Positions 34,984-50,930 are shown, numbered from the stretch's first letter. The stretch is DNA of 64,000 nt from Candidatus Cloacimonadota bacterium (GCA_029564175.1 JAKQQL010000474.1:14120-78119), one strand, 5' to 3'. The notes: generated from the sequence alone by a model not told the origin. Numbers and translations: made by a program.

Positions 34984-35220
34984 GTGAGTACATCTCCAGT
35001 GGCGGCCACAGTCTGGCTATCTGTTTATCGGGCTACGACATTCGCCACAAACAAGGTTCGATTACAAACAAGAAATGCATACCCCGAGTGGCGGTTTATA
35101 AATGCAGAATTGTCAGTGAGTGTAAATACGACAAATGGCATAGATGGTGATTGGATTACTATAAAAACAGGTATATCCATGAATGCGACGGCTGGTGGAT
35201 GGATTGATATAGACATTTGA
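34984..35220 (+). pseudogene. Discoidin (F5/8 type C)-like domain fragment, possible gene remnant
   Basis: 78 aa from a GTG with no clear SD. VWLSVYRATTFATNKVRLQTRNAYPEWRFINAELSVSVNTTNGIDGDWITIKTG looks like the C-terminal two thirds of a galactose-binding-like domain. Intermediate GC (hand counts 55% falling to 43%). Confidence 0.35.
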
Positions 35221-35312
35221 TTAAATTTAGAAATAGACCCTTAAACATTGTTATCGTAAAATCTTAAAAATGAGAATTTTTAAACTGTATAATCAAAGGA
35301 GGTTGATTAAAA

Positions 35313-35825: not shown

Positions 35826-35904
35826 AGGGAGCGTGAAAACATGGCACGAGTTTCAAACGTTTCAACCACGGTTATCAGCGCCATCAAAAACTATTCATTC
35901 ATCT

Positions 35905-35943
35905 GATATAGGCATCAAATATTGGTGCCTATATCAATTTTTA
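35905..35943 (+). terminator. Rho-independent terminator closing the foreign cassette
   Basis: Perfect 10-bp stem GATATAGGCA (35905-35914) / TGCCTATATC (35926-35935), followed by AATTTTT. Confidence 0.65.
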
Positions 35944-35965
35944 ACAAAATGAAAGAAGTGATAAA

Positions 35966-38900
35966 ATGAATTTAAATGGATTAAAATTCTATGATCATTC
36001 ACCAGATAAATTGAATTCATTTTTACGTGAAAATTATTTACATGGGAAAAATATTGAACATGATATTCCCATTGTAGAAGATGATCCCTATAAGATAACG
36101 AGCGATACAGTTTTTCTTTTGAAGTTGAATAACACAAGAACAGATGAATGTGGAAATATTTGGACATTTTCTGTTCCACAAACATTTGCCGCAACCCCGT
36201 TGCCACCTATTAGTGGGATTACTCATGTATTAAATTATTCAACATTCAATAGTAGCTATGTTGAATGTACAAGTTTAGCAGGAAATGCTATTGGAACAGG
36301 TGATTTCACTGTTGATTTTTGGGCATATACTTCTGGCCAAACTCCGGATTTTTACCCTTTTACCTGTATTGGTCATTATAGTGGACCAAATCATAGTGGA
36401 TCATTAGTAAATAGATTTGGTTCAGTATTTTATTCTAATGGATATGGTCTTTGGTGTGAACGTACAAAAGCAAAAAATCTTAATCATTGGAGGATGTTGT
36501 CAGGATGGCATCATTATGCTATTGTCAGAAGATCAGGAGTCGGATATCTCTATAGAGATGGAATTGAACTAGAACAAATTGCTGATTATACTTTTTCGGC
36601 TTTATCTGGATTTTCGTTCGGAGCTTATTCAACCGATGTTCTTGAACCTGTTTTATTAAGTCATTATCGTCTTTCTAGAACAGCATTATGGAATGCCAAT
36701 TTTGTTCCTCCTGGCGTTAAGGTTCAAGGAAAAGAATATGCTCCTACTAAATTCGGAATGTCATATAGTGGCAGTTCAACTGCAAATGAAGTTTGGTGTG
36801 TTGAATATTCGGATGATAATCTAAATTGGTCTTTAGCTGCAGGAAGATTTAAACCAAATCAAGCTGGTTGGAATTACATAACATGTCCTAATTATGGGAA
36901 TAAGAAATACTGGAGATTTAGAGTGGAAACACAATCGAATGGTGAATATCTGAATGAGGTTTCAATTGGAAACGGACAGAAAAAACAACATGTGAATAAA
37001 AGAGGGCCATGGAAAGCTTTTAAGATTGTTGGTATGTCTCAATATCATACCACCAACAACTGTTATTATATTCAAAACGGAGAAACGCAATGGATAGAAA
37101 CCGCTGGTGGAACTACTCAATGCACAGGTGGAACTCCTTTTGCTTCTAGTAATGATAAATATGATCCAATTGCAAAAGCATTTGACTCATACATATCAAC
37201 GTATTGGTTAACACAAGCCTCAGCTTCACCATCAGAAATTACGGCAGGATATATTCTCTCAACACCAAAGAAACTTTATTCGATCAAGCTATACCCGAGG
37301 GGTAACTGCTCTTGTATGAATTGGAAAAATTTTAGTATTTATGGAAGTAATGATACAACAAACGGAACTGATGGGACGTGGTATTTATTATTAGATAATC
37401 AAACAACTTCATCGACAGTCGATGAATGGTCGGAACACATTATTCCTGATGTTATTATTCCTGATGTTATTGGCTTTACCTATTCTCTTTCAACAGACTG
37501 GATAACATCAAATATTTCTGGAACTCTAGCAAATCTAATAGATGGAACAACTGGAACAACACAGGCGGTTTGTCAAAATCAGCCCGTTAATACCCACATA
37601 ACATTTGATTTTTCTCAACAAATTTTTCCAACTGAAGCAACAATTACAGAATGGAGTAAACTGAAACACACGAACAAACTCAAATACTGGTGGCCATTGA
37701 ATGATAAACCAGACGAGGTTATGCAATATCTAAGGTGTCTGGTTCATGGGACTGTTCCATTTGATCAAGATTATGGTGCTCAATTTTCAAATGAAACCTG
37801 TATCACTACTGATATTTTAACGATGCCAACAAAACTAACACTTCTCTGGTGGATGAGACCAGATTCAACAATGTTCAATTCTGGCAATATTACCGATCCT
37901 ATTGGTGCACCATCTGGAAGTGCTACAACTGGTTATCATTGGGGCCCAAGGTATGAAGCAGCAGGAAATCTTGTTCAATTCAATGGTGGCACTTCATGGC
38001 CTACAAATTCATCCGAATTTAACACAACAAACTATCCTACAACTAGACTAACACTTTGTGCCTTGGTCTTGAATAGAAACGGGTCATCTTCGACAGTTTC
38101 ATACTATCGAGCTAATTCAACAAATACTGCTATGGTTCAAGTAGGATCAACTACTACTTACACTGATGCTACTCCTAGAACTCTCTTTTCTATTGGGATG
38201 TCAGAAAGACTAGCTGTAAATCTTGTAGATCAAGTTAAACATTTCAATGGATATATTAGAGATGTCAGAATTTATGAAAGAATTCTTTCCTTGGCCGACA
38301 TTGAACTGATACGAGCTGCTGGCCCAGTAAATGATTTCATTTCAGAAACAGAAGAACCATTAGATTCATATAAGTGTATTAAATTTCTTGGGACGTATAA
38401 TACAACTAATGATGGTTGTGGAATGAATGAAATTGAAATTCTTCCTGTAGTTGGTGGTACTGATCAGTGTGAAGGTGGAACTATTTTAAGTAGTGGAGAT
38501 TTACCAAATTATAGTAAAGAATTCACATTTGATGATTTGATAGGATCGCCAACACAAGTTTGGTATGGCCCGAATAGTGGAACTTCTGCCTGGATTGCAT
38601 ATAAAAAAGATGCCGGTATTATTCCAAAAGTTATAAGATTTTATGGTGAAAACTGGGGCGACCCAACAAGATACCAATTCAAGAATATGCAAATCCTTGG
38701 AAGTAATAACACGACGACTGGTTATGATGGAGATTGGGAAATACTTGGGAATACTGGTAAAGTATATCATCAAGAATGGAAGAATTACACTATTATTAAA
38801 AGAAAAACATTAGCATTTTCTTTTGATTCCTTTTTAATTCACAAATGGTTATTGACAAACAATGGTAATGATGCTATTGGTAATTGGAATTTTCCTAGGA

Positions 38901-39406
38901 ATTTTGTTAATAATGGAGCAGTCTCTTTTGGTAGTGATGGTGCTGTATTTAGTGGATCAAATTATTTAAATCTAGCTTCTATTACATTGCCAACAGCTTT
39001 TACAATTTGTGGATGGGTTAAAATTAATACATCTGCCACTTACAATAATATATTCGGATTAGTTGATTCTCGAGAAATGACTTATGCATTTGAAAATGGC
39101 GTTGCAAGACACCAATGTTGTGGCATTGAAGTTAATACGACAGGCACAATAACTCTTTCAAATTGGACATTTATAGCTATGGGAACTAATGGAACAAATT
39201 TAACATTTAAATTTTTCAATGGTTCATATTGGTCTTCAACTTCTGTTGGTGCAATAAGAACATATTCAAATTGGCAAGTTGGTCGAGGTTTTTGGGTTGC
39301 TAATGATTATTTAAGAGGAAATGTAAAAGACCTTCGAATATATTCATCTTGTCTTACATCAGACAACTTAATACAGATACTATTAGCTGGCCCAAGTTTA
39401 AATTAA
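35966..39406 (+). CDS. Multidomain adhesin with LamG-like and discoidin-like modules
   Basis: 1146 aa. LamG-type signatures GYIRDVRIYERILSLADIELI and GNVKDLRIYSSCLTSDNLIQIL (also SHYRLSRTALWNANF). Discoidin-like CVEYSDDNLNWS...KKYWRFRVE, IKLYPRGN...NFSIYGSNDTTNGTDGTWYLL and VIRFYGENWG...MQILGSNNTTTGYDGDWEIL. Confidence 0.75.
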   Translation: MNLNGLKFYDHSPDKLNSFLRENYLHGKNIEHDIPIVEDDPYKITSDTVFLLKLNNTRTDECGNIWTFSVPQTFAATPLPPISGITHVLNYSTFNSSYVECTSLAGNAIGTGDFTVDFWAYTSGQTPDFYPFTCIGHYSGPNHSGSLVNRFGSVFYSNGYGLWCERTKAKNLNHWRMLSGWHHYAIVRRSGVGYLYRDGIELEQIADYTFSALSGFSFGAYSTDVLEPVLLSHYRLSRTALWNANFVPPGVKVQGKEYAPTKFGMSYSGSSTANEVWCVEYSDDNLNWSLAAGRFKPNQAGWNYITCPNYGNKKYWRFRVETQSNGEYLNEVSIGNGQKKQHVNKRGPWKAFKIVGMSQYHTTNNCYYIQNGETQWIETAGGTTQCTGGTPFASSNDKYDPIAKAFDSYISTYWLTQASASPSEITAGYILSTPKKLYSIKLYPRGNCSCMNWKNFSIYGSNDTTNGTDGTWYLLLDNQTTSSTVDEWSEHIIPDVIIPDVIGFTYSLSTDWITSNISGTLANLIDGTTGTTQAVCQNQPVNTHITFDFSQQIFPTEATITEWSKLKHTNKLKYWWPLNDKPDEVMQYLRCLVHGTVPFDQDYGAQFSNETCITTDILTMPTKLTLLWWMRPDSTMFNSGNITDPIGAPSGSATTGYHWGPRYEAAGNLVQFNGGTSWPTNSSEFNTTNYPTTRLTLCALVLNRNGSSSTVSYYRANSTNTAMVQVGSTTTYTDATPRTLFSIGMSERLAVNLVDQVKHFNGYIRDVRIYERILSLADIELIRAAGPVNDFISETEEPLDSYKCIKFLGTYNTTNDGCGMNEIEILPVVGGTDQCEGGTILSSGDLPNYSKEFTFDDLIGSPTQVWYGPNSGTSAWIAYKKDAGIIPKVIRFYGENWGDPTRYQFKNMQILGSNNTTTGYDGDWEILGNTGKVYHQEWKNYTIIKRKTLAFSFDSFLIHKWLLTNNGNDAIGNWNFPRNFVNNGAVSFGSDGAVFSGSNYLNLASITLPTAFTICGWVKINTSATYNNIFGLVDSREMTYAFENGVARHQCCGIEVNTTGTITLSNWTFIAMGTNGTNLTFKFFNGSYWSSTSVGAIRTYSNWQVGRGFWVANDYLRGNVKDLRIYSSCLTSDNLIQILLAGPSLN

Positions 39407-39428: not shown

Positions 39429-39869
39429 ATGTCAAGAATTTCAATTTCAAATATAAATATGATTGCTCCTGCAGGATCAACGGTAAACAAATCTATTGCA
39501 ACAAACAATAGTTCTGCTTTACAGTATATTGCTTCTAGTGATGGCCCCTCTTTGGATATTTCTGATGTTGTGAGTGGGTGTTTAAATATTGGATTTCAAT
39601 TTAGTGTCGCTCCTACTGCTGATTCAAAATTAACATTTTATGCTTTATATTCTAATGATGATGTCCATTATGACAATAGTGCAAATGTTGCCAATTTGGT
39701 GAAACTTGGAGAAATTGTTTTGGCTGCAAATACAAATCAAATTTATACAGTAATTCCTTTGGATGGTAAACTTTTTAATAAGAATATGAGATTGGTATTT
39801 ACGTGTAATGCTACTGCTGGCACGGGCGTTATTAATAGGTTAATTGCAACTCTTAAAAAATTGATTTAA
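39429..39869 (+). CDS. Hypothetical beta-rich protein in fibre module
   Basis: 146 aa, SD AAGGTGG. No motif recognised. Confidence 0.6.
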   Translation: MSRISISNINMIAPAGSTVNKSIATNNSSALQYIASSDGPSLDISDVVSGCLNIGFQFSVAPTADSKLTFYALYSNDDVHYDNSANVANLVKLGEIVLAANTNQIYTVIPLDGKLFNKNMRLVFTCNATAGTGVINRLIATLKKLI

Positions 39870-40394: not shown

Positions 40395-40397
40395 TAG

Positions 40398-40428
40398 AAG
40401 ACGGCTCAATGAGCCGTCTTTTTATTTT
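40398..40428 (+). terminator. Rho-independent terminator
   Basis: Perfect 10-bp stem AAGACGGCTC / GAGCCGTCTT with loop AAT, followed by TTTATTTT. Confidence 0.8.
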
Positions 40429-40475: not shown

Positions 40476-42617
40476 ATGTTATGGATTAGTCTATTTGTTG
40501 TTATTAGTATTGTGTTGTTTATCTTTCTAATTATTTTAAATGTGGGGAATATACAAAAGACCAATCATAAAATAGATGATTTAGAACAACTTGAAAAGAA
40601 AAAACTTGAAATGAAAGAATTAGAAGACCATCTTAAAAAATTAGCTGAAATCAATATATCTTACTCTAAAGAATTGGATACATTTACTGAATTTCATGAA
40701 ACCGTTTTAAAAAAATCATCTGATTTAGAGTTGCAATTCAAAACTCTTTTTAATAATTCTCCAATTGGAATATGCCGAGTGTCTATAAGTGGAAAATATA
40801 TTTACGCAAATTCTGCTTTAGCTAGAATGTTAGGCTATTTTGATGCCACTGAATTGACAAGTCTTGTTCAGAATACATCAGAACAAATATTTATGTTTCC
40901 AGATGAACGAAAAAGAGTTATTAAAAAACTTTCCATTAAACCTTATGAACCAGTTTTAATTGAACATGAATTAAAAAAGAAAAATGGAACTTCCATATTT
41001 ACAAGATGCAAGTATATGGGAGTATTAAATGAAAGAGAACAATTATCTTATATGGATGTTATAATAGAAGATATTTCTGATTTAAAGAAAAAAGAACAAG
41101 AGTTATATGATCAAAATGACATGATCATGGAATTATTAAAAGAACAACAAGAAATGAATGATCATTTAGACAAACAGGTTAAAGAGAGAACAAAAGAATT
41201 AGAGAAAAAGAGATATGAATTAGAAAAGATGAATCATGAATTATTAAAAATGAAAAATCTTTTTGAGAACATGTATAAGAAAGCTCCAATTGGATTATTT
41301 AGATCAAGTATTTCAACTGGCAAATTTCTTTCTTGCAATGATGCAACTGCTCATATATTTGATGTAAGAAATGCTGACGAATTTCTTAAAATAGTTAATG
41401 CTTTAGATATTTGGGGAAATAAAAAAAGAAGAGATGAATTAATAGAACATTTTAAAAATCTTCCTTCAATGACTACCTATAATCATATTGATTATTGCCA
41501 AACACCAATATCTAAAAAAGAAAGATATGTATCTGTTTCAGAACTTGCCAATTTTGATGATGATTATTTTGAAGGAGCATTTATTGATGTCACGGAAGAG
41601 TATTTAGCTAAAAAGAAACTGGAAGAAATGAATAAAAATTTAGCTAAAATTGTTAATGAAAGAACACACAATCTAATTGAACAATATGCTTATACTCAAC
41701 AATTAATATCAGAATTGGAAGAATCAAATAATCTTCTCAAAATAAAAACAAATAATCTTGAATTAAATCAATTAAAATTAAAATCTATCATAAAAACAAT
41801 TCCTGACAGTATTATTGTTTGCAAAATAAATGGTAAAATAACCGAATCATATAATATTCCAATGAATTTATTTCATGGGGATCCAATCGATTCAATTTTA
41901 TCTTTATTCAATTTAGATAATTCTTCTTATTTAATAAAATGTTTTGAAAAAATTATTCAAGAACATCATCCTGAAATTCAAAGTGGTATGATAAAAGAAT
42001 TATTTAATAATCAAATCAGTTGGTTTGAATATAATATTTTTAAAATGAATTCCGATCATGTTATTTTAGTTTTTAGAGATATTACTTCGAGAATGCAGAC
42101 AAAAACATTATTAGATTCAATATTACAGTCAACACAGATTCTTTTAACTAAGAAGCCTTTTGAATGTGCTTTGTATGAATCTCTTGAATGGTTTGGTAAA
42201 CTCAACAATGTTCAACGGGTATTTGTTTATAAAAATGAGGAAGATTCCTATATGAGTTCATTGGTATCAGAATATCATGAAGACCATCTTTTTGATTTAA
42301 ACAAAGATCAAAATAGACAATTGGATTATCTAAAAATGTCTAATGACCTTTCAATTTATAATCAATTAAAACAGGGGAAATGTGTTGAATTTATTATGAA
42401 AAATGAAGACCATGAAAAAATTCCAATAGTTGAGAGATTGAAACATAAAGGAGTTAAATCTATTTTATGTGTTCCTATTATTTTTCAATTGGATTTCTTA
42501 GGATATTTAGGAATTAGTGATTATGTATCAGATAGGATTTGGTCAGAGACTGAAAAACAAACATTATTGACATTTGCAACTAACATTGGTTTGATGATGG
42601 AAAAGGAGAATTTTTGA
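40476..42617 (+). CDS. Membrane-anchored PAS-PAS-PAS-GAF sensor-like protein without output domain
   Basis: 713 aa. N-terminal TM LWISLFVVISIVLFIFLIILNV. PAS-like starts FNNSPIGICRVSISGKYIYANSALARMLGY, YKKAPIGLFRSSISTGKFLSCNDATAHIF and IIKTIPDSIIVCKINGKITE, separated by coiled coils. GAF-like C-terminus (VQRVFVYKNEE...VKSILCVPIIFQLDFLGYLGISD...WSETEKQTLLTFATNIG). No H-box kinase, GGDEF, EAL or HTH seen. Confidence 0.65.
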   Translation: MLWISLFVVISIVLFIFLIILNVGNIQKTNHKIDDLEQLEKKKLEMKELEDHLKKLAEINISYSKELDTFTEFHETVLKKSSDLELQFKTLFNNSPIGICRVSISGKYIYANSALARMLGYFDATELTSLVQNTSEQIFMFPDERKRVIKKLSIKPYEPVLIEHELKKKNGTSIFTRCKYMGVLNEREQLSYMDVIIEDISDLKKKEQELYDQNDMIMELLKEQQEMNDHLDKQVKERTKELEKKRYELEKMNHELLKMKNLFENMYKKAPIGLFRSSISTGKFLSCNDATAHIFDVRNADEFLKIVNALDIWGNKKRRDELIEHFKNLPSMTTYNHIDYCQTPISKKERYVSVSELANFDDDYFEGAFIDVTEEYLAKKKLEEMNKNLAKIVNERTHNLIEQYAYTQQLISELEESNNLLKIKTNNLELNQLKLKSIIKTIPDSIIVCKINGKITESYNIPMNLFHGDPIDSILSLFNLDNSSYLIKCFEKIIQEHHPEIQSGMIKELFNNQISWFEYNIFKMNSDHVILVFRDITSRMQTKTLLDSILQSTQILLTKKPFECALYESLEWFGKLNNVQRVFVYKNEEDSYMSSLVSEYHEDHLFDLNKDQNRQLDYLKMSNDLSIYNQLKQGKCVEFIMKNEDHEKIPIVERLKHKGVKSILCVPIIFQLDFLGYLGISDYVSDRIWSETEKQTLLTFATNIGLMMEKENF

Positions 42618-43672
42618 TGAAATGTTGTAAACATCTAACAATTAGACAAAAATTATATTTTAGTTTGGTATTTACTTTTTTCATTTCATTCTTGTTAATC
42701 TTTGTTATTGGAAATCTTTATATTGAATTATCCTTTAAAGAATCTGATGAAAAATTACTTCAAAAAGAAATGAATTTGGCATCTCTTATCATTGGAAATT
42801 TTCAAGATAAAATTGATAGTTTTGTATATGATTATGCGCATTGGGAAGAAACATATAAATATACTTCTAATGATAATAAAGAATTTGTTAATAGGGAATT
42901 GTTAAATAATTTTACTATTTCATCAAATTATATTGACATATTACAAATCATTTCTGTGAATGGAGATATTCTTTTTCAATATGATTACACAATATTGAAA
43001 ACTGGAATACCAAAAGAATTCTTAACAGTTAATAAACAATTCATTAATAATAAAAACGATAGTTCTATTTCTGGATATTATTTTGTGGAATCAAGAAATG
43101 AAATGTATTATATTGTTTCATATCCAATTGTTTGCCCAAAACATAAAGAATATCCAACTAAAGCTAGTTTGGTTGGTATTGGTAAATTGAATTGGAATAA
43201 AATATTTCCAAGAGGCTTTTCACTTTTTGATTCAACAATTGATTTTCAATTTAAACCTCCATTTGATTTGAAACAAAACATGAAAATTCAAAATACACAA
43301 GGTCAATTATTTTCAGAATATATTTTAAAAGATGTTCAGGATAGACCCGTTGGTAAAATTCAATTAACAAAATCATTTGAAATCAAAAATACTTTAGATT
43401 CATTTTTTACCTTAATAATGTTTATTTTCTTAATAGTTTTTATTTTTTTTCTAACACTTCTTTTTTACTTTTTCATTTCCATTTTTAGGAAAATTAATCA
43501 GGTTTGTCTCATCATATATGAAATTAATAATATGGGATCATTAGATGAAATTGAAAATCTAAATATTCAAGAAAAACAATGTCAGTTCGACAATAAAAAT
43601 GAATTTGAATTTTTAGATTGCCAACTTTATAAAATGATTAATAAATATTTCAATAAGGGAAGACATATCTAA
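42617..43672 (+). CDS. Two-TM protein with CHASE4-like extracytoplasmic domain
   Basis: ATG overlaps the upstream TGA (TGATGA). TM1 LYFSLVFTFFISFLLIFVIGNLYI and TM2 FFTLIMFIFLIVFIFFLTLLFYFFISIF. DYAHWEETYKYTSNDNKEFVNRELL resembles the CHASE4 D-[YW]-[AS]-x-W-D-[DE]-T-Y motif (from memory). Short cytoplasmic tail only. Confidence 0.45.
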   Translation: MKCCKHLTIRQKLYFSLVFTFFISFLLIFVIGNLYIELSFKESDEKLLQKEMNLASLIIGNFQDKIDSFVYDYAHWEETYKYTSNDNKEFVNRELLNNFTISSNYIDILQIISVNGDILFQYDYTILKTGIPKEFLTVNKQFINNKNDSSISGYYFVESRNEMYYIVSYPIVCPKHKEYPTKASLVGIGKLNWNKIFPRGFSLFDSTIDFQFKPPFDLKQNMKIQNTQGQLFSEYILKDVQDRPVGKIQLTKSFEIKNTLDSFFTLIMFIFLIVFIFFLTLLFYFFISIFRKINQVCLIIYEINNMGSLDEIENLNIQEKQCQFDNKNEFEFLDCQLYKMINKYFNKGRHI

Positions 43673-43673
43673 A

Positions 43674-44465
43674 ATGAGCGATAGATTTTGGGAATTTTTA
43701 GAAACGGTTCTTAAAAAGGATAAGGATGTTTTTCTAGCGATAATCTTTTTGGCAATCCCCCTTGGTTTATTAGGTTTTGGGATTATTACACCTGATCATT
43801 TTTTCAGTTTAGAAAAACCAGTCATAATCTTTTTTATCATATCATTTATTCTAATACTATTCTTTTTCATTTTCGTTAGAATAAATAAAATTTTAAAAGT
43901 TGTTGGAGAAGGTTCATCATCAAGTCGAGCCTCATCACCTGAATATACACAAATTGTACAATTAATGACTGAAATCTCAAAATACTTAAATGATCGACAT
44001 GATGAAAATTTAAAATTGGTCACACAAATGATTCAAGTTCAACAGGCTCTTAAAAAGATGCCTAGTAAAAAACAAATCATTATGATGGTCGAATATGGAT
44101 TAATGACACTAACATTTAACCTAATAGAAACCTTAATAGCTTTTTCAAGACAAAATGTGAATCTTATACAAAATCAAAATACTCAACAAAATTTAATTCG
44201 AAAAGCAGAATTAGACATTAGTGATGCAAAAAATGAATTTTTAAAAATCATTAATGTTCATTTAAACAGGTTGGTATCACCTGAAATATATTCACAAATG
44301 GAATATGAATTAGATCAATATTTAACGGACACTGTTAGAATTATTTTACGTGATCAAGCAAATCTTGAAGATAAAATTATAAATATCAATCTTCTTGCAA
44401 GAACTCTCTCAAACAATATTTTAGGTTTAATTGCAAATAATTTGAAATGGCCTGACGAGGATTGA
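43674..44465 (+). CDS. Membrane protein (two N-terminal TM segments) with helical cytoplasmic domain
   Basis: 263 aa. FLAIIFLAIPLGLLGFGIIT and VIIFFIISFILILFFFIFV. 1-nt gap from the upstream stop. Confidence 0.55.
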   Translation: MSDRFWEFLETVLKKDKDVFLAIIFLAIPLGLLGFGIITPDHFFSLEKPVIIFFIISFILILFFFIFVRINKILKVVGEGSSSSRASSPEYTQIVQLMTEISKYLNDRHDENLKLVTQMIQVQQALKKMPSKKQIIMMVEYGLMTLTFNLIETLIAFSRQNVNLIQNQNTQQNLIRKAELDISDAKNEFLKIINVHLNRLVSPEIYSQMEYELDQYLTDTVRIILRDQANLEDKIININLLARTLSNNILGLIANNLKWPDED

Positions 44466-45481
44466 TGGTTATGACTTCGACAAATTTATTAATAATCTTG
44501 TGTGTTGTAATAATTGTTCTTTTAATTATTGGCTATAATTCCAATGAAGACAATAATTTTAACAAAAAGAAAAAGAACATTGAGGAAAAAAAGAAAAGAA
44601 AGGATGACCTCAATGTTATTAAGAACCTAACAAAAGAAATAGCTCAAAAGGATGAACAATCAACTCAATTAATTCAAGAATTTCTCAAAAGAGAAACTGC
44701 TTCAATCATAATGAGTGAAGAGAAAAATAGATTTTACGAATCAATTATGGATCACACATCTTCACCAATTTATGTTCAGGATATGAAAGGAAAATTTATT
44801 TTAATAAATAAAGCTTTTACAGAAATGTTTAAAATAAATAAATCAGAACTTGATCTACAAAAATATAACAATACTAATTTTCTAAATAGGCTTCTTACGG
44901 ATTTTGACATGCATGAAAATCTTTTGTCTGATGCTTTTGTATTTGATTATAAAGAACCAACTTCTTGTTTATTTCAATTGACAAATGGAAAGGTTATTAC
45001 CATTAAAAAAACCTATTATCAAAATTCTGTGATGGAATCTTTTCTAATTGGTATTATTAGTGATATTTCAGAACTACACAAAGAAAAGGAAGCTGTTTCT
45101 TATGAAAAGAATATGTTAGAACTGATTCTAGATTCATTACCATTACCAATTTTCGTGACAGATGAAAACCTCATTGTTCTTAAAGTTAATAAAACACTGT
45201 GTGAATTATTTGGAAAAGAAAAGTCTGATTTCATCAATACGAAATATTGTTGTAAAGATATGTTTCAGTGTGGCCAATGTAATCCTTGCCAAATTGATGA
45301 AAAACAAGAATTTTCTGAGAAGATATTTTTAAATGGTCAATTAATAGAACAAAAGAGATATGTTATTATTATTAGTAAAGCATTTTTATTGAATGAAAAC
45401 AAACATTTTGTAATTTCAATGTTTGATAAAAAACACGAGTATGGACTTTTTCAGAATTGCGGTGATTCAAACCATGATTAA
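44465..45481 (+). CDS. Membrane-anchored double-PAS protein with Cys cluster
   Basis: ATG overlaps the upstream TGA (an alternative ATG is at 44471). TM LLIILCVVIIVLLIIG. PAS-like FYESIMDHTSSPIYVQDMKGKFILINKAFTEMF and MLELILDSLPLPIFVTDENLIVLKVNKTLCELFG. Cys cluster KYCCKDMFQCGQCNPC. Confidence 0.6.
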   Translation: MVMTSTNLLIILCVVIIVLLIIGYNSNEDNNFNKKKKNIEEKKKRKDDLNVIKNLTKEIAQKDEQSTQLIQEFLKRETASIIMSEEKNRFYESIMDHTSSPIYVQDMKGKFILINKAFTEMFKINKSELDLQKYNNTNFLNRLLTDFDMHENLLSDAFVFDYKEPTSCLFQLTNGKVITIKKTYYQNSVMESFLIGIISDISELHKEKEAVSYEKNMLELILDSLPLPIFVTDENLIVLKVNKTLCELFGKEKSDFINTKYCCKDMFQCGQCNPCQIDEKQEFSEKIFLNGQLIEQKRYVIIISKAFLLNENKHFVISMFDKKHEYGLFQNCGDSNHD

Positions 45482-46082
45482 GTATCTTAGAGAAAAAATA
45501 TCATTCTTATTTTTGATCATCATTTCAATATCTTTTTTATTGTTGAATGGAATGAATCATATTGAAGCTTATAATAAGTATGCTAAATCAGTTTGGAAAA
45601 ACAATTATTCCTTTATTTTAGAATCAACTTCTAAGAACATTTCAAATTACATTCAACTCAATAAAAACATTAAACCATTTAATGAAAGTCTTAAAGAAGC
45701 TTTAATATATTATGTCAAAAGTTTTTCTCTTCATGATTCATATACAAATTTCTTTTTTTATGAAACACAAGAGAATGATTTGATAAATGATTCTTTTATT
45801 GATCAATTCAAAGATAAGATTTATTATAAATTAGAAAATGATCCAAATGATATTATCAAAATGTCATCAATAGAAAATTATCTAATACTAACACAAAAAT
45901 TTATGTTATTGGAAAATAAAACTGTCTTATTGGGTATCTTAATTACACAATCAGATTTAATTGAATATTCAAATACTTATCTTTTTATTGATAGAGAAAT
46001 CAATAATATTTTCTTCTTTGGAATATTTATTATTTTGTTAATTCTCTATGATTATTATCTATATGTGAAAAATGAGGGATAA
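45474..46082 (+). CDS. Two-TM membrane protein with extracytoplasmic domain
   Basis: In-frame ATG 45474 lies 8 nt after GGTGA and overlaps the upstream gene by 8 nt. TM ISFLFLIIISISFLLLNG and C-terminal TM IFFFGIFIILLILYDYYLYV. Confidence 0.55.
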   Translation: MIKYLREKISFLFLIIISISFLLLNGMNHIEAYNKYAKSVWKNNYSFILESTSKNISNYIQLNKNIKPFNESLKEALIYYVKSFSLHDSYTNFFFYETQENDLINDSFIDQFKDKIYYKLENDPNDIIKMSSIENYLILTQKFMLLENKTVLLGILITQSDLIEYSNTYLFIDREINNIFFFGIFIILLILYDYYLYVKNEG

Positions 46083-46085: not shown

Positions 46086-46415
46086 ATGGCAGATTTTAAA
46101 CTAGAATTACTTGTTCAAGTAGCATTAAATCAAGAATCAACTGTTTTATATACTGTTCCAAATGGAAAAACCTGTATTATAACAGAATGTATTTTATGTA
46201 ATACTTCACCGAATGATGTAAATATTTATCAGTCTTTCGTTAAAAGGGCTGAAGGACTTAGCACTAAAAATACAATTATTAAAGATTTAACCCTTAAACC
46301 AAATGAAACTTATCGAATGACATTTAGCACATTTCTTGCCCCATATACGACAATTAGAATGCATGCAACAGAAGAGAATGTTGTCTCTTGCCAAATATCT
46401 GGAGTTCTGATATAA
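46086..46415 (+). CDS. Small beta-rich hypothetical protein
   Basis: 109 aa. LYTVPNGKTCIITECILCNTSPNDVNIY. Tightly packed in the operon. Confidence 0.6.
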   Translation: MADFKLELLVQVALNQESTVLYTVPNGKTCIITECILCNTSPNDVNIYQSFVKRAEGLSTKNTIIKDLTLKPNETYRMTFSTFLAPYTTIRMHATEENVVSCQISGVLI

Positions 46416-46430
46416 TAGGGAAGGCATAAT

Positions 46431-46727
46431 ATGTTTAGGTCAATAAATCAAAGATTATCAAATGATACAACAAGATTACAAGAACCTATTGTTATTGATC
46501 AAAATGTTCAGGGGATTAAAAAAGGTAATGGTTTGTTTGCTGGAAATAATTTAGAAACTGTAATTGCACATGGTTTGGGATATGCCCCAAAATACGTAAA
46601 TGTAATTCCAATAAATAATCCTCAAGGGACTTTGGGCGAAATATGGACACGAATGGATCAAACAAATATTTATGTTGGGAATACTGGAACATTTACAGGT
46701 CAATTTGTTTGGATTGTAATTAAATAG
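46431..46727 (+). CDS. Small beta-rich hypothetical protein
   Basis: 98 aa. VIAHGLGYAPKYVNVIP...NIYVGNTGTFTGQFVWIVIK. SD GGGAAGG. Confidence 0.6.
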   Translation: MFRSINQRLSNDTTRLQEPIVIDQNVQGIKKGNGLFAGNNLETVIAHGLGYAPKYVNVIPINNPQGTLGEIWTRMDQTNIYVGNTGTFTGQFVWIVIK

Positions 46728-46742
46728 AAGGAGTAGGATGAA

Positions 46743-48251
46743 ATGGATTTATCCACAGTTGAAAAAATATATCAACAAGATTATAAATCAGTTCCAATTA
46801 TGAATTCGACATATATTATTACTGGTAAATGTAGTCTTGCATGTAAATATTGTTTTGAGAGAGGTATGCCTGCTTCAAAAAGAAAGGACATGTCCAGTCA
46901 AGTAGCTATTCAAGGAATGGAATTTCTTTTTGAAAATTCAAAACATATGCCAAATAATAGATCAATTTCAATTATGTTGTTCGGCGGAGAACCAACAATG
47001 AATCCACGAACAATTATTAGTCTAATAAATCATTATAAAAATAATATTAAACCAAGATATCCAAATAGAAATTTTAGCATGAATATTATCACGAATTGTT
47101 GTCAATTATCAGATGAACTTTATAATTGTTTTCTTGAGAATGCACAATTAATAAATCTTTCTTGCCAGGTGTCAATTGATGGCATGCCAGAGATTCAAGA
47201 TTTAAATAGAATACAGCCAAATGGAAAAGGTTCTTCTCATTTAATTCCAGATACATTAAATAAATGGAAACATATTTTTAAACATGATCCAAAACGATTG
47301 AATGTTCATGGGTGTTGCTCACCTGAAACCATTTCTTATTTATATGAAAATTATTGTTATTTTAAAGATGTTTATGGAATTTCCCAAATTTGGTTTTTAC
47401 CAGTTCCAGAATTGGATTGGAAACCAGAACATGTAAAGATTTATGATGAACAAATGAATAAAATTTACCATGATGTTCTCAATGACGTTAAAAAAACTGG
47501 CGATGTTAATCAAGCATTCTGTTATGCTCCTTTAGATAGATTTATGTCATGTGATTTTCCAGATAAACCTTGTGGAGCTGGAACAGATTATTGCACAATA
47601 ACACAAGATGGAGATTTATTTCCTTGCCATCAACTTTATTTTTGTGATAAAGAAAATGAGACATGCATGGGAAATATTTGGGATGGTGTTGATGATGACA
47701 AAAGAAGAATCTTTTTAGAGTATGATAGTTTTGATTTAACCTGTCCATCTTCATGTGATCATGGAGCTTGTTATAGATGTTTTGCTTCCAATTATCAAAA
47801 TCGTGGATCAATGTTATCTCAAATAAGAGGATATTATTGTTCGATGATGAAAATAGATCAGAAATATGAAAGAATGTTAAAGGAGGAACTTTTTAAAATG
47901 GGACTATTAAATGGAGAAAATATGAACCACAATCCAAATTGTCTATGTGATTCTCGTGGCGATCAAAATGTTTGCCATAAAGAATGTAATGGAGAATGCC
48001 AGGGGGAATGTGGCAATGAATATTGCCAAGATGGTTGCCACGATTGCCATTGCGGAAGTGAAGATCAACATATTAAATCTCAATGGCAAGATAAAGTTTG
48101 TAATTCTGAATTTGAAATAGATACATTTACTGATGAACAGGGTAATGAAATTACAATTAAGAGGCGAAAGAAACAAACCAATATTGATGAAGCTATTAAT
48201 ATTTTGTCTCAAGCATTCAGTGAAGTTATTAAATTACTTCAACAGAGGTAA
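46743..48251 (+). CDS. Radical SAM enzyme with SPASM/twitch-like auxiliary Fe-S domain and Cys/His-rich C-terminal tail
   Basis: 502 aa. CSLACKYC (CX3CX2C, nt 46830-46853), LFGGEPTMNP, auxiliary clusters CGAGTDYCTITQDGDLFPC and CPSSCDHGACYRC. Tail NCLCDSRGDQNVCHKECNGECQGECGNEYCQDGCHDCHCG. SD AAGGAG 9 nt upstream. Confidence 0.8.
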   Translation: MDLSTVEKIYQQDYKSVPIMNSTYIITGKCSLACKYCFERGMPASKRKDMSSQVAIQGMEFLFENSKHMPNNRSISIMLFGGEPTMNPRTIISLINHYKNNIKPRYPNRNFSMNIITNCCQLSDELYNCFLENAQLINLSCQVSIDGMPEIQDLNRIQPNGKGSSHLIPDTLNKWKHIFKHDPKRLNVHGCCSPETISYLYENYCYFKDVYGISQIWFLPVPELDWKPEHVKIYDEQMNKIYHDVLNDVKKTGDVNQAFCYAPLDRFMSCDFPDKPCGAGTDYCTITQDGDLFPCHQLYFCDKENETCMGNIWDGVDDDKRRIFLEYDSFDLTCPSSCDHGACYRCFASNYQNRGSMLSQIRGYYCSMMKIDQKYERMLKEELFKMGLLNGENMNHNPNCLCDSRGDQNVCHKECNGECQGECGNEYCQDGCHDCHCGSEDQHIKSQWQDKVCNSEFEIDTFTDEQGNEITIKRRKKQTNIDEAINILSQAFSEVIKLLQQR

Positions 48252-48258
48252 TTTTTAA

Positions 48259-49167
48259 ATGATGAAACGAGTTGAAACGTATGTTGTATATGTATCCGGC
48301 AGATGTAATTGCAATTGTCATTATTGTTATCTTAAAACTGGTGGGTTGAACCCAAAACTCGATTATGATTTTGATACAGATATTAAACCATTATTGGACA
48401 ACATCAAGAAATCTACTGAACCATTTGTAATTGAATTTCTTGGTGGTGATCCGATTGTAGATGACTTATCTGTTTTAAATTTAATCAAAACGGTTAATTA
48501 TTTTCCAACTGGTCAGCCTTTCATTATTACAACAAATGGAACAAGGTTGCCAAATGAAATACTCGAATTGTTAAAATCAAATCCAAATATTTATTGGGCG
48601 GCTTCAATGGATGGAACAAAGTGGGCTAATCAATTGAGAATTACCAAAGATGGATATAATACTTATGATTTGGTAATGGAAAATATTAAGACTCTTAAAA
48701 TGAATAATATTCCTGATAAACAAATTGGCATTCACTTAATTACACATCCTTATAATATTGCTTTTCTGGAACAAAGTATTGATCATCTTTACAAAAAAGG
48801 CATTAGAAATTTTGGAATTGGAACAGTAGAATCTACCATGAAGATAGGATATGAATATTGTTCTAGATTCATATATGAATTGAATCAAGTTTCTACCAAT
48901 ATTTGCAATGGTAAATATCCTGAAATTGGTATTGATTTATTTAATGGTATTAAACCAAGAGAAGATATCAGGCAATATATACACGATGGTAATGGAAATA
49001 TTATTGGTGAATCTTATGGAAGAAATAAAGATGATTTTACACAAACTGATACTTTTAATGTTCAAAAATGTGATAATACAAAGAGAAATTTAATTCAAGA
49101 AATTCGTGAAGAAGTCTATTGGAATCATCAAGATAATCTCAAAAAGAGGCTCTTTCATAATAAATAG
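48259..49167 (+). CDS. Radical SAM enzyme (single-domain)
   Basis: 302 aa. VYVSGRCNCNCHYCY (CX3CX2C) and FLGGDPIV (SAM-binding GGE-like motif). No SPASM-like C-terminus. Confidence 0.7.
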   Translation: MMKRVETYVVYVSGRCNCNCHYCYLKTGGLNPKLDYDFDTDIKPLLDNIKKSTEPFVIEFLGGDPIVDDLSVLNLIKTVNYFPTGQPFIITTNGTRLPNEILELLKSNPNIYWAASMDGTKWANQLRITKDGYNTYDLVMENIKTLKMNNIPDKQIGIHLITHPYNIAFLEQSIDHLYKKGIRNFGIGTVESTMKIGYEYCSRFIYELNQVSTNICNGKYPEIGIDLFNGIKPREDIRQYIHDGNGNIIGESYGRNKDDFTQTDTFNVQKCDNTKRNLIQEIREEVYWNHQDNLKKRLFHNK

Positions 49168-49178
49168 GGTGAATTTTA

Positions 49179-50432
49179 ATGGCAATTTTAATAGCAAATG
49201 AATTTTTTCTAAAACAAATTTTAGAAATGGCCAAAAGAAGAAAAGGACATACCATTTCGGATATAGATAACCAATGGGAGTCTTTGGATAAATTAAAAAA
49301 CCTAATAAATAATATGGTTCAAAATAGAATTCAAACACAAGATATCTGTCATTGCAATGTTAGAACATCTTCATGTGATTGTTTTAATAGAAGTTCAACA
49401 GTTTCAACATGTCTTTGTAATTTAAGAACAGTTGGATGTGAATGTCAGGGGCGAATTATGGTTTGCCCCTCTCATTCACCAACACCATATTCTAATACTT
49501 CTATTAGTTTAAAAGAATTGCAAGATAAGGTAAAATCATTAAGAGGTCAAACATTGAATAATTATCCATATCCCGGATGTTCTTGCCAAAATAGAACCAG
49601 CGACCCTATTTGCACTTGTCAAACTCGAACTGGAACATGTAATTGTGTTTCTCGAACACCGTCTGCAGATATATGCATTTGTAATATTTATGCGTGTGTT
49701 TGTGTTTCTAGAACAAGTGTGCCGGGGCAATGGGGAGAACAATGTTATGAATATGCTCCAAGATATAAAGATTGGCCAACCAATTTTCCATCTGGAGGAA
49801 ATCAAGGATGGGATAGTTCTTGGACTGTTAGTGGACAATATATTTATGATGTTTGTCAATGTAAGGTTCGGACTATCCATCAACATGCATGTCATTGCAA
49901 TTACAGAACTGGATTATGTCATGCTGTATCGACATGCCCATCAGACAATATTAATGTTCCAGGTAGCACTTATTGTCAGTGTAATTGTTATCAATGGCCA
50001 AGTGGGCCACATTGTGAGTGTAAGTATCGTGTAAGTGGGTGTAGAGAACAAGAAAGATGCACGTGCAATATGAGATCACCCTGTTCAAAAGATTTAAAAT
50101 TTCCAGGCACTGCAAGTCAGATCTGTTTAGTTTCCCCCTCGGCAACTTGCACAAATAGGTCGTATGATGGTGCACCATCATGCCCAAGTTTTATGCCAAC
50201 TGGAACAGGTATTGGCGGATCAGATGATGAAGCATCTTCTATGTGTAATACAGTTTCAAATAATAGTCCACGATGTGATTGCCAGTCAAGAACTCCAACA
50301 ACACCAGTTTGTAATTGCAACTTACAAAATCCATGTGATTGTGTTTCAAGAACTTATACTGATCCACATATATGCAATACGAGATGTGGATGCAATGTTG
50401 TTTCAACATATGATACCATTATTAATGATTAA
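49179..50432 (+). CDS. Cys-rich CxCxxR[TS]-repeat protein, candidate radical-SAM substrate
   Basis: 417 aa. Cys-free helical N-terminus of 56 aa, then CHCNVRT, CDCFNRS, CLCNLRT, CSCQNRT, CTCQTRT, CNCVSRT, CVCVSRT, CQCKVRT, CHCNYRT, CECKYRV, CTCNMRS, CDCQSRT, CDCVSRT and others. SD GGGTGA. Followed by a terminator. Confidence 0.75.
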   Translation: MAILIANEFFLKQILEMAKRRKGHTISDIDNQWESLDKLKNLINNMVQNRIQTQDICHCNVRTSSCDCFNRSSTVSTCLCNLRTVGCECQGRIMVCPSHSPTPYSNTSISLKELQDKVKSLRGQTLNNYPYPGCSCQNRTSDPICTCQTRTGTCNCVSRTPSADICICNIYACVCVSRTSVPGQWGEQCYEYAPRYKDWPTNFPSGGNQGWDSSWTVSGQYIYDVCQCKVRTIHQHACHCNYRTGLCHAVSTCPSDNINVPGSTYCQCNCYQWPSGPHCECKYRVSGCREQERCTCNMRSPCSKDLKFPGTASQICLVSPSATCTNRSYDGAPSCPSFMPTGTGIGGSDDEASSMCNTVSNNSPRCDCQSRTPTTPVCNCNLQNPCDCVSRTYTDPHICNTRCGCNVVSTYDTIIND

Positions 50433-50440
50433 ACAACTTA

Positions 50441-50476
50441 AATTAGGCTAGGATAATTTCTAGCCTAATTTTTTAT
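50441..50476 (+). terminator. Rho-independent terminator
   Basis: 10-bp stem AATTAGGCTA / TAGCCTAATT with a 10-nt loop, followed by TTTTATATTT. Confidence 0.75.
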
Positions 50477-50493
50477 ATTTGGTCGTGATAGTA

Positions 50494-50928
50494 ATGATTA
50501 ACAATGTTATGAAAACAATAAAAGTATCATTTCAGAAATTTTTCCAATCTTCAAATAAAATAATTCACGTTTCTGGTGATGGTTTTCTAACATTTTTAGA
50601 GAAATATAAAGGTGCTAGAAGAATTATTTTAGTTGTTGTCATTTATATCAACATGCATGCTTTTTGGGTAAGTCAAAAGTTAATACTAATGGGAATTCCA
50701 CTTGATCCAGAATGGAATTATTATCAACTTGGATGGCTTGGATTGTTAGCAACATTTTTAGCCTTTTATACGATGAGTCGTGTTAATGAATTTAAATCAA
50801 ATACCCCTTGGTCTAGACCAAATAGTTGGGGCAAAGAAAATGCAAAAACATCAGCAGAAATGTCAAAACAATTACCACCAAGTGCTGATGAATCAGAAGG
50901 CGAAGGGAATCCGCCAGAAGGAGTTTAA
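50494..50928 (+). CDS. Putative holin
   Basis: Two hydrophobic segments (IILVVVIYINMHAFWVSQKLILMGI, LGWLGLLATFLAFYTM) and a charged C-terminus. Lies immediately upstream of the endolysin. Start ambiguous (TTG 50479, ATG 50494 or 50509). Confidence 0.45.
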   Translation: MINNVMKTIKVSFQKFFQSSNKIIHVSGDGFLTFLEKYKGARRIILVVVIYINMHAFWVSQKLILMGIPLDPEWNYYQLGWLGLLATFLAFYTMSRVNEFKSNTPWSRPNSWGKENAKTSAEMSKQLPPSADESEGEGNPPEGV

Positions 50929-50930
50929 AT

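Follow-up and report, generated by a model that had tools for sequence, protein, structure and literature searches.

A five-gene array of membrane-anchored sensor-domain proteins without a recognised output domain in a T4-like phage from sewage sludge

Results

A five-gene array shares a late-region unit with a radical-SAM module

The array described here belongs to an uncultivated T4-like phage from sewage sludge and lies in a 64,000-nt window (JAKQQL010000474.1:14120-78119, GCA_029564175.1), the window being the whole stretch of DNA analysed. It consists of five plus-strand ORFs at 40476-46082, A to E, all of which abut or overlap (Table 1). Direct reading of stops and starts confirmed the coupled appearance reported in the first-pass annotation: B and C are separated by a single nucleotide at position 43673, C and D meet in a TGATG at 44463-44467 and D and E overlap by 8 nt (45474-45481). 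The A/B overlap is likewise present, but its earlier coordinates (TGATGA at 42614-42619) were one base off, the junction being a TGATG with TGA at 42615-42617 and ATG at 42617-42619. The ATG of D at 44471 has a better-spaced GAGGA and is the start used in public gene calls, while the alternative ATG at 44465 overlaps the stop codon of C. In one related array (L007), a gap of about 20 nt replaces the D/E overlap. As the genes overlap or abut, the five proteins are probably made together. All five carry one or two N-terminal TM helices, as had been claimed for every ORF; hydropathy analysis assigns one to A, two to B, two to C (forming a hairpin), one to D and two to E, giving eight TM helices in total, with positive-inside flanks.

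Table 1. Coordinates and layout of the array, its transcription unit and the adjoining lysis cassette.
Feature	Position (nt)	Strand	Description
Terminator-like hairpin and T-run	40396-40422	+	Directly upstream of A; 12-bp stem, 6 GC pairs
Gene A	40476-42617	+	713 aa; N-terminal TM (aa 2-20), long helix, PAS1 (aa 87-202), long helix, PAS2 (ca. aa 262-370), long helix, PAS3-like (ca. aa 445-535, weak), GAF (aa 566-706)
Gene B	42617-43672	+	351 aa from ATG; TM1 (aa 13-31), extracytoplasmic CHASE4 (aa 61-189), TM2 (aa 264-282), cytoplasmic tail
Gene C	43674-44465	+	263 aa; two-TM hairpin (aa 20-38 and 50-68), cytoplasmic all-helical domain with four long helices forming a bundle (aa 132-256); orphan family
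Gene D	44471 (or 44465)-45481	+	336/338 aa; TM (aa 3-21), charged long helix, PAS1 (aa 83-208), PAS2 (ca. aa 215-320)
D C261-x5-C267-x2-C270-x2-C273 motif	45251-45289	+	Central PAS2 segment; candidate Fe-S/metal site
Gene E	45474-46082	+	202 aa; TM1 (aa 9-27), extracytoplasmic domain (ca. 148 aa), TM2 (aa 176-194), 8-residue cytoplasmic end; orphan family
Remainder of unit	46086-50432	+	F109, G98, two radical SAM genes, Cys-repeat protein
Radical SAM/SPASM maturase (rSAM1)	46743-48251	+	Same terminator-bounded unit as A-E
Second radical SAM (rSAM2)	48259-49167	+	Same terminator-bounded unit as A-E
417-aa Cys-repeat protein	49179-50432	+	48 Cys, 13 CxCxxR[TSV] repeats
Terminator-like hairpin	50440-50471	+	Closes array/radical-SAM unit
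Holin-like gene	50479-50928	+	Lysis cassette, directly after closing hairpin
Glucosaminidase	50931-51497	+	Lysis cassette

The hairpin upstream of A is predicted to mark the start of a transcription unit, and the divergent L005 lineage has a hairpin and T-run of different sequence at the equivalent position. The array shares this terminator-bounded late-region unit with a radical-SAM/Cys-repeat module and the unit lies directly upstream of the lysis cassette, with the holin gene 4.4 kb downstream of the array. Both the shared unit and the adjoining lysis cassette had been missed in the earlier reading. Unit order in L005 is conserved as far as its contig reaches, through rSAM1. The 417-aa protein shares CxCxxRT repeats with a 1727-aa protein of the tail module. 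Six IMG/VR contigs (L015-L020) contain parts of the module comprising the G98-like gene, rSAM1, the Cys-repeat ORF and rSAM2, with between two and all four of these genes per contig. No A-E match was found in any of the six, the flanks being covered to at most 10 kb where the contig is long enough. The occurrence of the module without sensors in six viral contigs makes the sensors look like a lineage-specific add-on; the module genes lie beside the sensors but probably do not belong to the sensor device.

The array is phage DNA under purifying selection

The array is part of a phage genome, as the first-pass annotation had supposed. The genome encodes a tape measure protein, a baseplate wedge, Phage_base_V and fibres, along with the glucosaminidase lysis cassette and DnaB/primase/RecA. 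A dip in total GC, 21-28% across the array block vs ca. 31% in the flanks, would favour misassembled host DNA or captured genes turning into pseudogenes, but this low GC is a result of an Ile/Phe/Lys/Asn-rich composition. GC at third codon positions (GC3) is 0.15-0.21, equal to that of other phage genes, and being fully phage-like indicates that any capture was ancient. An independent contig matches the window at 100% identity over 7.9 kb, and the same junctions between array and phage genes recur in at least six other assemblies. All five genes are under purifying selection, with intact frames and dN/dS values of 0.15 (A), 0.14 (B), 0.28 (C), 0.12 (D) and 0.11 (E). L005 keeps the A-E genes in their order at 36-52% identity, and so do L007-L011 in gene content and order, a sample that in effect represents two or three lineages. 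The host misassembly considered earlier is excluded by the identical junctions of separate assemblies, by the conserved synteny and by the phage-like GC3; together with intact frames and dN/dS, these findings effectively refute artefact or decay, to which we assign a next to negligible probability.

Proteins A, B and D carry sensor domains

Domains were called at curated Pfam and NCBIfam cut-offs and profile-profile comparisons were carried out with hhalign. The PAS, GAF and CHASE4 folds initially proposed were recovered above these cut-offs, and since the divergent ortholog set returned identical domain calls, the A-E matches are not due to chance. In protein A, PAS1 (aa 86-210) matches TIGR00229 with 52.2 bits (cut-off 22.9) and PAS_8 with 44 bits (cut-off 21.8). 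The second PAS (aa 255-385) reaches only E 0.05 in Pfam but aligns to PAS1 with 94% hhalign probability over 95 columns. GAF (PF01590) scores 25.3 bits in the whole protein and 29.7 bits as an isolated segment (cut-off 22.4), and the protein terminates 7 residues past this match; the L005 ortholog has the same architecture, with GAF at 24.5 bits. The third PAS-like segment (aa 425-550) is without a profile match and shows an EE-HH-EEE pattern at aa 445-535 with an AF2 pLDDT below 50, the model of A as a whole having a pLDDT of 42. Three PAS cores and a GAF domain had been claimed for A; PAS1 and GAF stand by profile and PAS2 by hhalign, while PAS3 is without profile support.

The two PAS stretches of protein D match PAS_8 with 52.5 bits, PAS with 48.7 bits and TIGR00229 with 49.1 bits, and PAS matches recur in the orthologs. 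Homologs of D were found only within the same phage group. The profile and hhalign results for A and D support four of the five array PAS domains, leaving the fifth as a plausible candidate. D also contains the cysteine cluster noted previously, C260/C261-x5-C267-x2-C270-x2-C273, at nt 45248-45289. C261, C267, C270 and C273, four of its five cysteines, are invariant in comparison with a ca. 53%-identical ortholog, and the motif is kept in the L005 lineage. It is located in PAS2 where the E/F-alpha helices would be expected, making this conserved Cys4 site a candidate Fe-S or metal site.

Protein B contains a CHASE4 domain (PF05228, 42.5 bits, cut-off 26.2; 44.2 bits in its ortholog) between two TM helices, in agreement with the first description of a two-TM periplasmic domain with DYAHWEETY. 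The sequence YDYAHWEETY is found at aa 71-80, inside CHASE4, and YDYxxWEETY is kept between B orthologs. B is only weakly similar to solved CHASE4-type domains (9p50_A, E 0.17), and hhalign aligns the TM1 and CHASE4 part of B with 94% probability to a CHASE4-HAMP-GGDEF-like-HD-GYP protein from Alkaliphilus. The tail following TM2, ca. 65 aa long and conserved, resembles HAMP in position and length only, with no Pfam match at E values up to 10 and an hhalign probability of 0.2% against five HAMP sequences.

Proteins C and E belong to orphan families. For C, a single relative was found among 1.84 billion representatives, and the C-terminal NLKWPDE of the protein is conserved. Its model predicts a two-TM hairpin and a cytoplasmic four-helix bundle (pLDDT 77-90 over aa 130-256), for which a fold search returned generic four-helix bundles only, at non-significant E values above 0.2, and no enzyme-like match. 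E is the fastest-evolving array member, 36% identical to its L005 ortholog.

No output domain or close cellular relative was recognised

The absence of a visible output domain, reported at first pass, agrees with sensitive Pfam and NCBIfam searches in two divergent lineages. Searches of A-E revealed no kinase, receiver, GGDEF/EAL/HD-GYP, MCP or HTH domain (Pfam, E up to 1-10), and HisKA/DHp and HATPase_c are absent from the arrays of both lineages (Pfam, E up to 1-10; NCBIfam, E up to 0.01). The other 30 window ORFs scanned, 27 of them against Pfam, and the 10 kb beyond the window likewise gave no output domain; for the receiver domain this covers 27 other window ORFs by Pfam and 9 large tail-module ORFs by PHROGs only. 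A tblastn search of 50,697 phage records with A, B and D and pattern scans of IMG/VR with A and D gave no A-E-like proteins. A-E have no significant PHROGs family, with weak coiled-coil-type matches at E ≥ 0.001, and no PADLOC match. Sensor-only arrays of this size had been called unusual in phage genomes at first pass. Among 5.8 billion clusters, which include metagenomes of the same sludge sample type, no cellular relative exceeds ca. 33% identity, and that over a single PAS only; no cellular homologs of C, D and E were found. Closest to the array proteins among cellular ones are multi-PAS histidine kinases and the CHASE4-HAMP-GGDEF-like-HD-GYP protein.

Discussion

A possible contact-signalling complex

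We tentatively propose, at somewhat less than even chances, that A-E are subunits of one phage-made, membrane-embedded sensory complex without an enzymatic transmitter. Formation of a complex is suggested by gene packing and by co-conservation in effectively two or three lineages, and the TM topology with its positive-inside flanks is compatible with it. The phage may in this way sense its surroundings and act via protein contacts, a mode not yet described for phages. Inputs from outside the cytoplasm would be received by the CHASE4 domain of B and the extracytoplasmic domain of E, and cytoplasmic inputs by at least four, perhaps five, PAS domains and the GAF domain in A and D, carried on long signalling-type helices. 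The Cys4 PAS of D probably binds an Fe-S cluster or metal, which would make it a sensor of redox state, O2 or metal status. Conformational change would be relayed along the eight TM helices and the coiled coils and reach a partner protein by contact, with no phosphotransfer or nucleotide synthesis in the output, and the four-helix-bundle protein C would be the most likely adaptor. The two targets that appear most plausible are a c-di-GMP enzyme or kinase in the host membrane, controlled in the manner of IsmP acting on the cyclase ImcA, and the phage's own holin, in which case lysis timing would be set much as by the RI antiholin; with either target, late infection would be adjusted to redox and external conditions in the sludge. 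The part of the phage genome covered here is the 64-kb window and 10 kb beyond it, and the remainder could include a gene for a kinase or cyclase partner. A more far-reaching version, which we judge unlikely, is an autonomous multi-input receptor complex of a lytic T4-like phage, combining an Fe-S PAS redox sensor with two extracytoplasmic sensing domains and free of kinases and second messengers, that gates a late decision according to external chemistry and redox state. That decision would be holin triggering and lysis timing, the most attractive option, or a host c-di-GMP enzyme, and such a complex would represent a new class of viral environmental sensing device combining the orphan adaptors C and E with borrowed sensor domains.

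The same domain content would fit dominant-negative decoys. These would be host sensor kinases or c-di-GMP enzymes copied in truncated form, which silence the full-length host proteins independently of any signal by forming heterodimers through TM, coiled-coil and PAS interfaces. A ends after GAF, B after the post-TM2 tail and D after PAS2, where a transmitter would begin, and the closest cellular relatives are proteins of these types. However, the low cellular identity and the missing homologs of C, D and E mean that mimicry of a specific host sensor, as heterodimers would need it, is not visible; any capture was ancient, and conservation of the Cys4 and CHASE4 motifs suggests that sensing is retained. 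Of the initial sensory-module or decoy proposal, phage-encoded membrane proteins with sensor domains only are upheld and the decoy version is weakened; we consider decoys unlikely. PAS and GAF are common dimerisation modules that also serve oligomerisation alone, and A-E could instead form a non-sensory membrane scaffold in which PAS, GAF and coiled coils only oligomerise and serve a membrane function late in infection, for example excluding superinfecting phage, remodelling the membrane or anchoring an assembly step. The location of five membrane proteins in the late structural-side region is consistent with this, and a by-eye look recognised no LOV or heme-binding His cofactor signature. Yet the CHASE4 motif and the PAS Cys4 site are kept at 42-53% overall identity, which argues that ligand or cofactor sites still matter; the mix of CHASE4, PAS and GAF is typical of receptors and not of known exclusion proteins, and no PHROG or PADLOC match points to such functions. 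A scaffold is accordingly a distinctly unlikely explanation.

Least probable among the functional alternatives, and in our estimate very unlikely, is a role of A-E as accessory regulators of the co-transcribed radical-SAM/Cys-repeat maturation module, in which, for instance, thioether-type cross-linking of fibre proteins, an O2-sensitive reaction, could be gated or localised by a redox or O2 sensor. The shared unit with its order conserved in L005 through rSAM1, the candidate Fe-S PAS adjoining Fe-S enzymes and the repeats common to the 417-aa and 1727-aa proteins are in line with such a role, but the six IMG/VR contigs that keep module parts without any A-E match indicate that the module works without the sensors.

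Comparison with known systems

Output-less sensor proteins are common yet unexplained in archaeal and bacterial genomes. To our knowledge, known examples of environment sensing by phages are soluble one-component receptors (arbitrium AimR, VqmA-Phage and LuxR-type). Among cellular proteins, the TM-CHASE4-TM-HAMP-GGDEF-like-HD-GYP protein of Alkaliphilus transvaalensis shares input domain and TM-CHASE4-TM topology with the array, and the Methanospirillum 'PAS domain S-box protein' P0007 similarly combines CHASE4 and PAS with no recognised output domain. In contrast to cellular CHASE4/PAS/GAF receptors, which are single polypeptides, the array spreads its modules over five separately anchored proteins, adds the orphans C and E, shows at most ca. 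33% identity over single domains and is found in a viral context.

IsmP (PA2072) of Pseudomonas aeruginosa, one of a screened set of c-di-GMP-metabolising enzymes, senses iron through a periplasmic CHASE4 domain and regulates the cyclase ImcA by contact (PMC10904736). B is similarly a membrane CHASE4 protein and IsmP exerts this control by contact, not by its own catalysis; in contrast, B has only a 65-aa tail after TM2 and is virus-encoded, and the partner of IsmP is a known cyclase. VqmA-Phage of vibriophage VP882, a soluble transcription factor of the one-component PAS-HTH type, is a phage-encoded PAS sensor that reads a chemical cue and has a defined output (PMC8284805). The array shares with it a phage-encoded PAS-domain protein but is membrane-bound and multi-subunit, without a DNA-binding or other output domain, and lies in an apparently lytic T4-like genome. 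Redox-sensitive Fe-S clusters are bound by C52, C61 and C65 in the PAS domain of OrpR (PMC8359166), and NreB is a PAS sensor with an Fe-S cluster (PMC13478379). Like these proteins, D has conserved clustered cysteines within a PAS domain; it differs in its C-x5-C-x2-C-x2-C spacing, in having no kinase or AAA+/HTH output attached and in showing no significant sequence match to NreB or OrpR. The T4 antiholin RI, a small single-TM periplasmic protein without an enzymatic domain, senses a condition and binds the holin T, and its gene neighbourhood runs from tail fibres to lysis genes. The array resembles RI in consisting of non-enzymatic phage membrane proteins and in this neighbourhood, but has no sequence or domain similarity to it and a positional link only to its holin. 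If the proposed sensory complex exists, it would bring extracytoplasmic and redox cues, lytic T4-like phages and contact-only signalling into the range of viral sensing. With the holin or host c-di-GMP enzymes as target, redox and metal conditions in wastewater would be tied directly to lysis or host behaviour, and the array offers a compact natural test case for how output-less sensors transmit information.

The sensor array lies in the late region of a T4-like phage

The window represents the late region of a large T4-like myovirus that has not been cultivated, with giant fibre-like proteins among its structural genes (table) and clamp-loader, RNase H and Mre11-like genes just outside the window. 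The nearest isolates share at most about 30% identity in core proteins (baseplate, RecA), and related contigs were assembled from metagenomes of activated sludge and comparable sources. As judged from sequence, the glucosaminidase suggests that the host is bacterial, and the spanin-like ORFs give a hint that it may be diderm. Neither Rfam families, including riboswitches, nor tRNAs were found in the window.

Features of the window (positions in nucleotides; empty cells, no value reported)
Feature	Position	Strand	Description
Tape-measure-like protein	382-3900		structural gene
Phage_base_V spike	8706-9335		structural gene
gp6/J-type baseplate wedge	10723-12813		structural gene
Gene A	40476-42617	+	713 aa
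Gene B	42617-43672	+	351 aa
Gene C	43674-44465	+	263 aa
Gene D	44471/44465-45481	+	336/338 aa
Gene E	45474-46082	+	202 aa
F109	46086-46415		4 Cys; phrog_1276, E 7e-6
G98	46431-46727
First radical SAM	46743-48251		PapB/SCIFF/CXXX-repeat-maturase-like, SPASM region; E 1e-45, below equivalog cut-off
Second radical SAM	48259-49167
Cys-repeat protein	49179-50432	+	417 aa; 48 Cys (11.5%); 13 C-x-C-x-x-R-[T/S/V] repeats; directly after the two radical SAM genes
Lysis cassette	50479-52411		glucosaminidase with holin-like and spanin-like neighbours
Replication genes		-	RecA/UvsX-like, primase-like, DnaB-like

Upstream of the array, GC rises locally to 0.48 from about 0.31 (34001-36000 / 34720-39406), in a stretch with ORFs overlapping on both strands and a 593-nt gap without an ORF. 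In L007, one of the nearer contigs carrying the array, the homolog of 39429-39869 follows almost directly after that of 33643-34719. L007 lacks the 1146-aa LamG/F5_F8-type fibre gene (35966-39406), which L008, another nearer contig, has; this looks like a swappable host-recognition cassette. In L005, a divergent lineage, an RCC1-repeat (beta-propeller-like) protein (L005 positions 3-1667) lies upstream of the array, replacing a 146-aa ORF, a 170-aa ORF and the LamG fibre gene. In both lineages, a variable host-recognition region thus adjoins the array.

Genes A-E encode membrane proteins with sensor domains only

The five ORFs A-E are present as described in the first-pass annotation. The 1-nt gap between B and C, the TGATG at the C/D junction (44463-44467) and the 8-nt overlap of D and E were all read directly, while the A/B junction (TGATG, 42615-42619) had been placed one base off. 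The next ATG of D, at 44471, shows better Shine-Dalgarno spacing than the first. By hydropathy, A and D contain one transmembrane (TM) segment and B, C and E two each. Lys/Arg flanks assign the PAS and GAF parts and the C-terminal domain of C to the cytoplasm, and the CHASE4 domain and the 148-aa middle domain of E to the outside of the cell.

A had been read as carrying three PAS domains and a GAF domain. Profiles above curated cut-offs support the first PAS (TIGR00229, 52 bits; PAS_8, 44 bits) and the C-terminal GAF (25-30 bits). The second PAS is a weaker call, supported by its alignment to the first in a profile-profile comparison (94%, 95 columns); the third has no profile match and shows a PAS-like order of strands and helices in a low-confidence AF2 model. 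This model, built from a 3-sequence alignment (pLDDT 42.5), was too poor for a fold search and was used for its secondary-structure pattern, which also places helices of approximately 65-70 residues ahead of each PAS. The CHASE4 domain proposed for B is borne out at 42.5 bits, above the curated cut-off, and includes the motif YDYAHWEETY. A conserved 65-residue cytoplasmic tail follows at the position of a HAMP domain; its assignment as HAMP was rejected as unproven, both HAMP tests being negative. Both PAS domains predicted in D score above curated cut-offs. In the second, C261-x5-C267-x2-C270-x2-C273 is invariant at 53% overall identity; the first Cys of the 'CC' pair in the annotated cluster is not conserved.

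C and E are orphans. An exhaustive HMMER search of 1.84 billion representative proteins yielded a single relative of C, the ortholog in the divergent lineage. Its AF2 model consists of a TM hairpin and a four-helix bundle (pLDDT 77-90 over residues 130-256, 66 overall), for which Foldseek against the PDB returned only generic four-helix bundles at non-significant E-values above 0.2. E has only close relatives, with no family or PDB match, and no relationship of its extracytoplasmic domain to the CHASE4 of B or to PAS was detectable.

The earlier claim that the array lacks an output domain also holds: permissive thresholds revealed no HisKA, HATPase, receiver, GGDEF, EAL, HD-GYP, MCP-signal or HTH domain in A-E, and the remaining window ORFs that were scanned, as well as the flank outside the window, likewise yielded none. 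Sequence and profile searches of the PDB with each of the five proteins gave nothing significant, PHROGs contained no significant family and PADLOC had no match. Among cellular proteins, A is best matched by individual PAS domains from multi-PAS histidine kinases and from archaeal PAS S-box proteins; identity does not exceed 33%, and approximately 20% of A is covered. For B, representative genomes gave a single match, to an Alkaliphilus protein with the order TM, CHASE4, TM, HAMP, GGDEF-like, HD-GYP (read by eye from the translation), and the alignment covers only TM1 and CHASE4. A tblastn search of 50,697 phage records with A, B and D as queries gave no match, nor did IMG/VR pattern scans in which D, A, the first radical SAM protein and F109 were each used alone. 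For D and E, word-indexed searches returned only the same phage group, and a metagenome scan for further lineages recovered L005 and L010, a nearer contig, and no others.

The array is a conserved, phage-borne unit

Genes A-E are co-located, tightly packed, co-conserved and under selection. An independent ENA contig matches the window at 100% identity across 7.9 kb, and the array recurs with the same phage neighbours in at least six further assemblies at 88-96% protein identity. All five genes recur in L005 in unchanged order (identity 52% for A, 42% for B, 46% for C, 52% for D and 36% for E), with matching downstream genes and Pfam architecture. Between the window and L007, dN/dS is 0.11-0.28 for all five genes; homolog depth is shallow, with effectively two or three lineages, and the genome is incomplete. 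Total GC of the block is low (21-28%), which reflects amino-acid composition. Its GC3 (0.15-0.21) equals that of other phage genes, and the low GC was therefore rejected as a mark of foreign DNA. The first-pass annotation had named misassembled host DNA as a possible refutation. Independent contigs, synteny in L005, dN/dS and GC3 together exclude misassembly, host contamination and pseudogenisation, leaving artefact or decay a practically negligible explanation of the block.

The array shares a terminator-bounded unit with a radical-SAM module

Terminator-like hairpins at 40396-40422 and 50440-50471 enclose a ten-gene unit in which A-E are followed by F109, G98, a radical SAM/SPASM maturase, a second radical SAM protein and the 417-aa Cys-repeat protein. 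L005 has a hairpin and T-run of unrelated sequence at the same place upstream of A. Further GC-rich hairpins with T-runs occur at approximately 300-360, 19990-20025, 31820-31850, 35900-35940 and 55110-55145, and the hairpins split the long plus-strand late region into approximately six units. A promoter motif common to the units was recognised neither upstream of them nor downstream of the hairpins. The lysis cassette, starting directly after the second terminator and approximately 4.4 kb downstream of the array, comprises a 2-TM holin-like ORF (50479-50928), a glucosaminidase endolysin, an i-spanin-like protein with an N-terminal TM segment and coiled coil, and a signal-peptide protein.

The 417-aa protein and the two radical SAM proteins look like a large phage-encoded Cys-repeat substrate with its maturases. 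A CSCxxRTP-type repeat tract is also found in a 1727-aa tail-module protein (14779-19962; residues approximately 978-1068, approximately 17710-17982), and this tract is the part that matches ORFs beside radical SAM genes in L015, L018, L019 and L020, four of six IMG/VR viral contigs (L015-L020) with the module. The tract suggests that radical SAM enzymes cross-link a fibre protein of the virion; the module probably modifies structural proteins. The first radical SAM protein (502 aa) has a C-terminal Cys-rich tail made up of CxxxC-type repeats, CLCDSRGDQNVCHKECNGECQGECGNEYCQDGCHDCHC (residues 400-437, approximately 47940-48053). Its repeat number differs in L007, and the tail may bind an additional cluster or represent a substrate-like sequence fused to the protein. 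Between the window and L007, the F109 and G98 proteins show 100% identity, against 88-98% for neighbouring genes. G98-like ORFs, sometimes in several copies, lie beside radical SAM genes in L015, L016, L018 and L020, four of the six IMG/VR loci.

The six IMG/VR contigs retain parts of the G98-like/first radical SAM/Cys-repeat/second radical SAM module, with homologs of the first radical SAM protein at 31-41% identity, and contain no match to A-E in flanks of up to 10 kb, as far as the contigs extend. The module is therefore a wider phage feature and the array ahead of it a lineage-specific addition. The sensors were accordingly rejected as an integral part of the module as the main reading, and regulation of the module by A-E is very unlikely given that versions without sensors exist.

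A-E may act as a membrane complex that signals by contact

Our preferred reading, held tentatively and at somewhat less than an even chance, is that A-E form one membrane complex signalling to a partner by contact. Such a complex would integrate extracytoplasmic inputs (CHASE4, E) with cytoplasmic ones (PAS, GAF), and the Cys4 site of D is predicted to carry an Fe-S cluster or metal, for which OrpR and NreB provide precedents among PAS proteins (PMC8359166, PMC13478379). The signal could then pass via C, acting as an adaptor, to its target, most plausibly either the phage holin just downstream or a c-di-GMP enzyme or kinase of the host. A holin target would follow a logic like that of the RI antiholin. 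The stronger proposal, in which a self-sufficient viral receptor complex would control lysis timing or host c-di-GMP with neither kinase nor messenger, is rather improbable.

That A-E are instead constitutive dominant-negative decoys is unlikely, as the proteins have no close cellular counterpart. The conserved ligand-site motifs weigh against a non-sensory scaffold, which we regard as distinctly unlikely.

The domains of the array are classical, and both phage-encoded sensing and output-less receptors are known kinds. IsmP, which senses iron via CHASE4 and binds and inhibits the cyclase ImcA (PMC10904736), sets a direct precedent for contact-based action of a CHASE4 protein, and bacterial CHASE4 occurs almost exclusively in c-di-GMP enzymes (PMC10904736). 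The known phage PAS receptor, VqmA-Phage, is a PAS-HTH factor (PMC8284805), and full-text literature searches found no other phage PAS/GAF sensor, no phage CHASE4 and no sensor-only array. A-E are unusual in how they are packaged, as five output-less sensor proteins, each with its own anchor and two of them orphans, that are kept as a conserved unit in a lytic-type phage.
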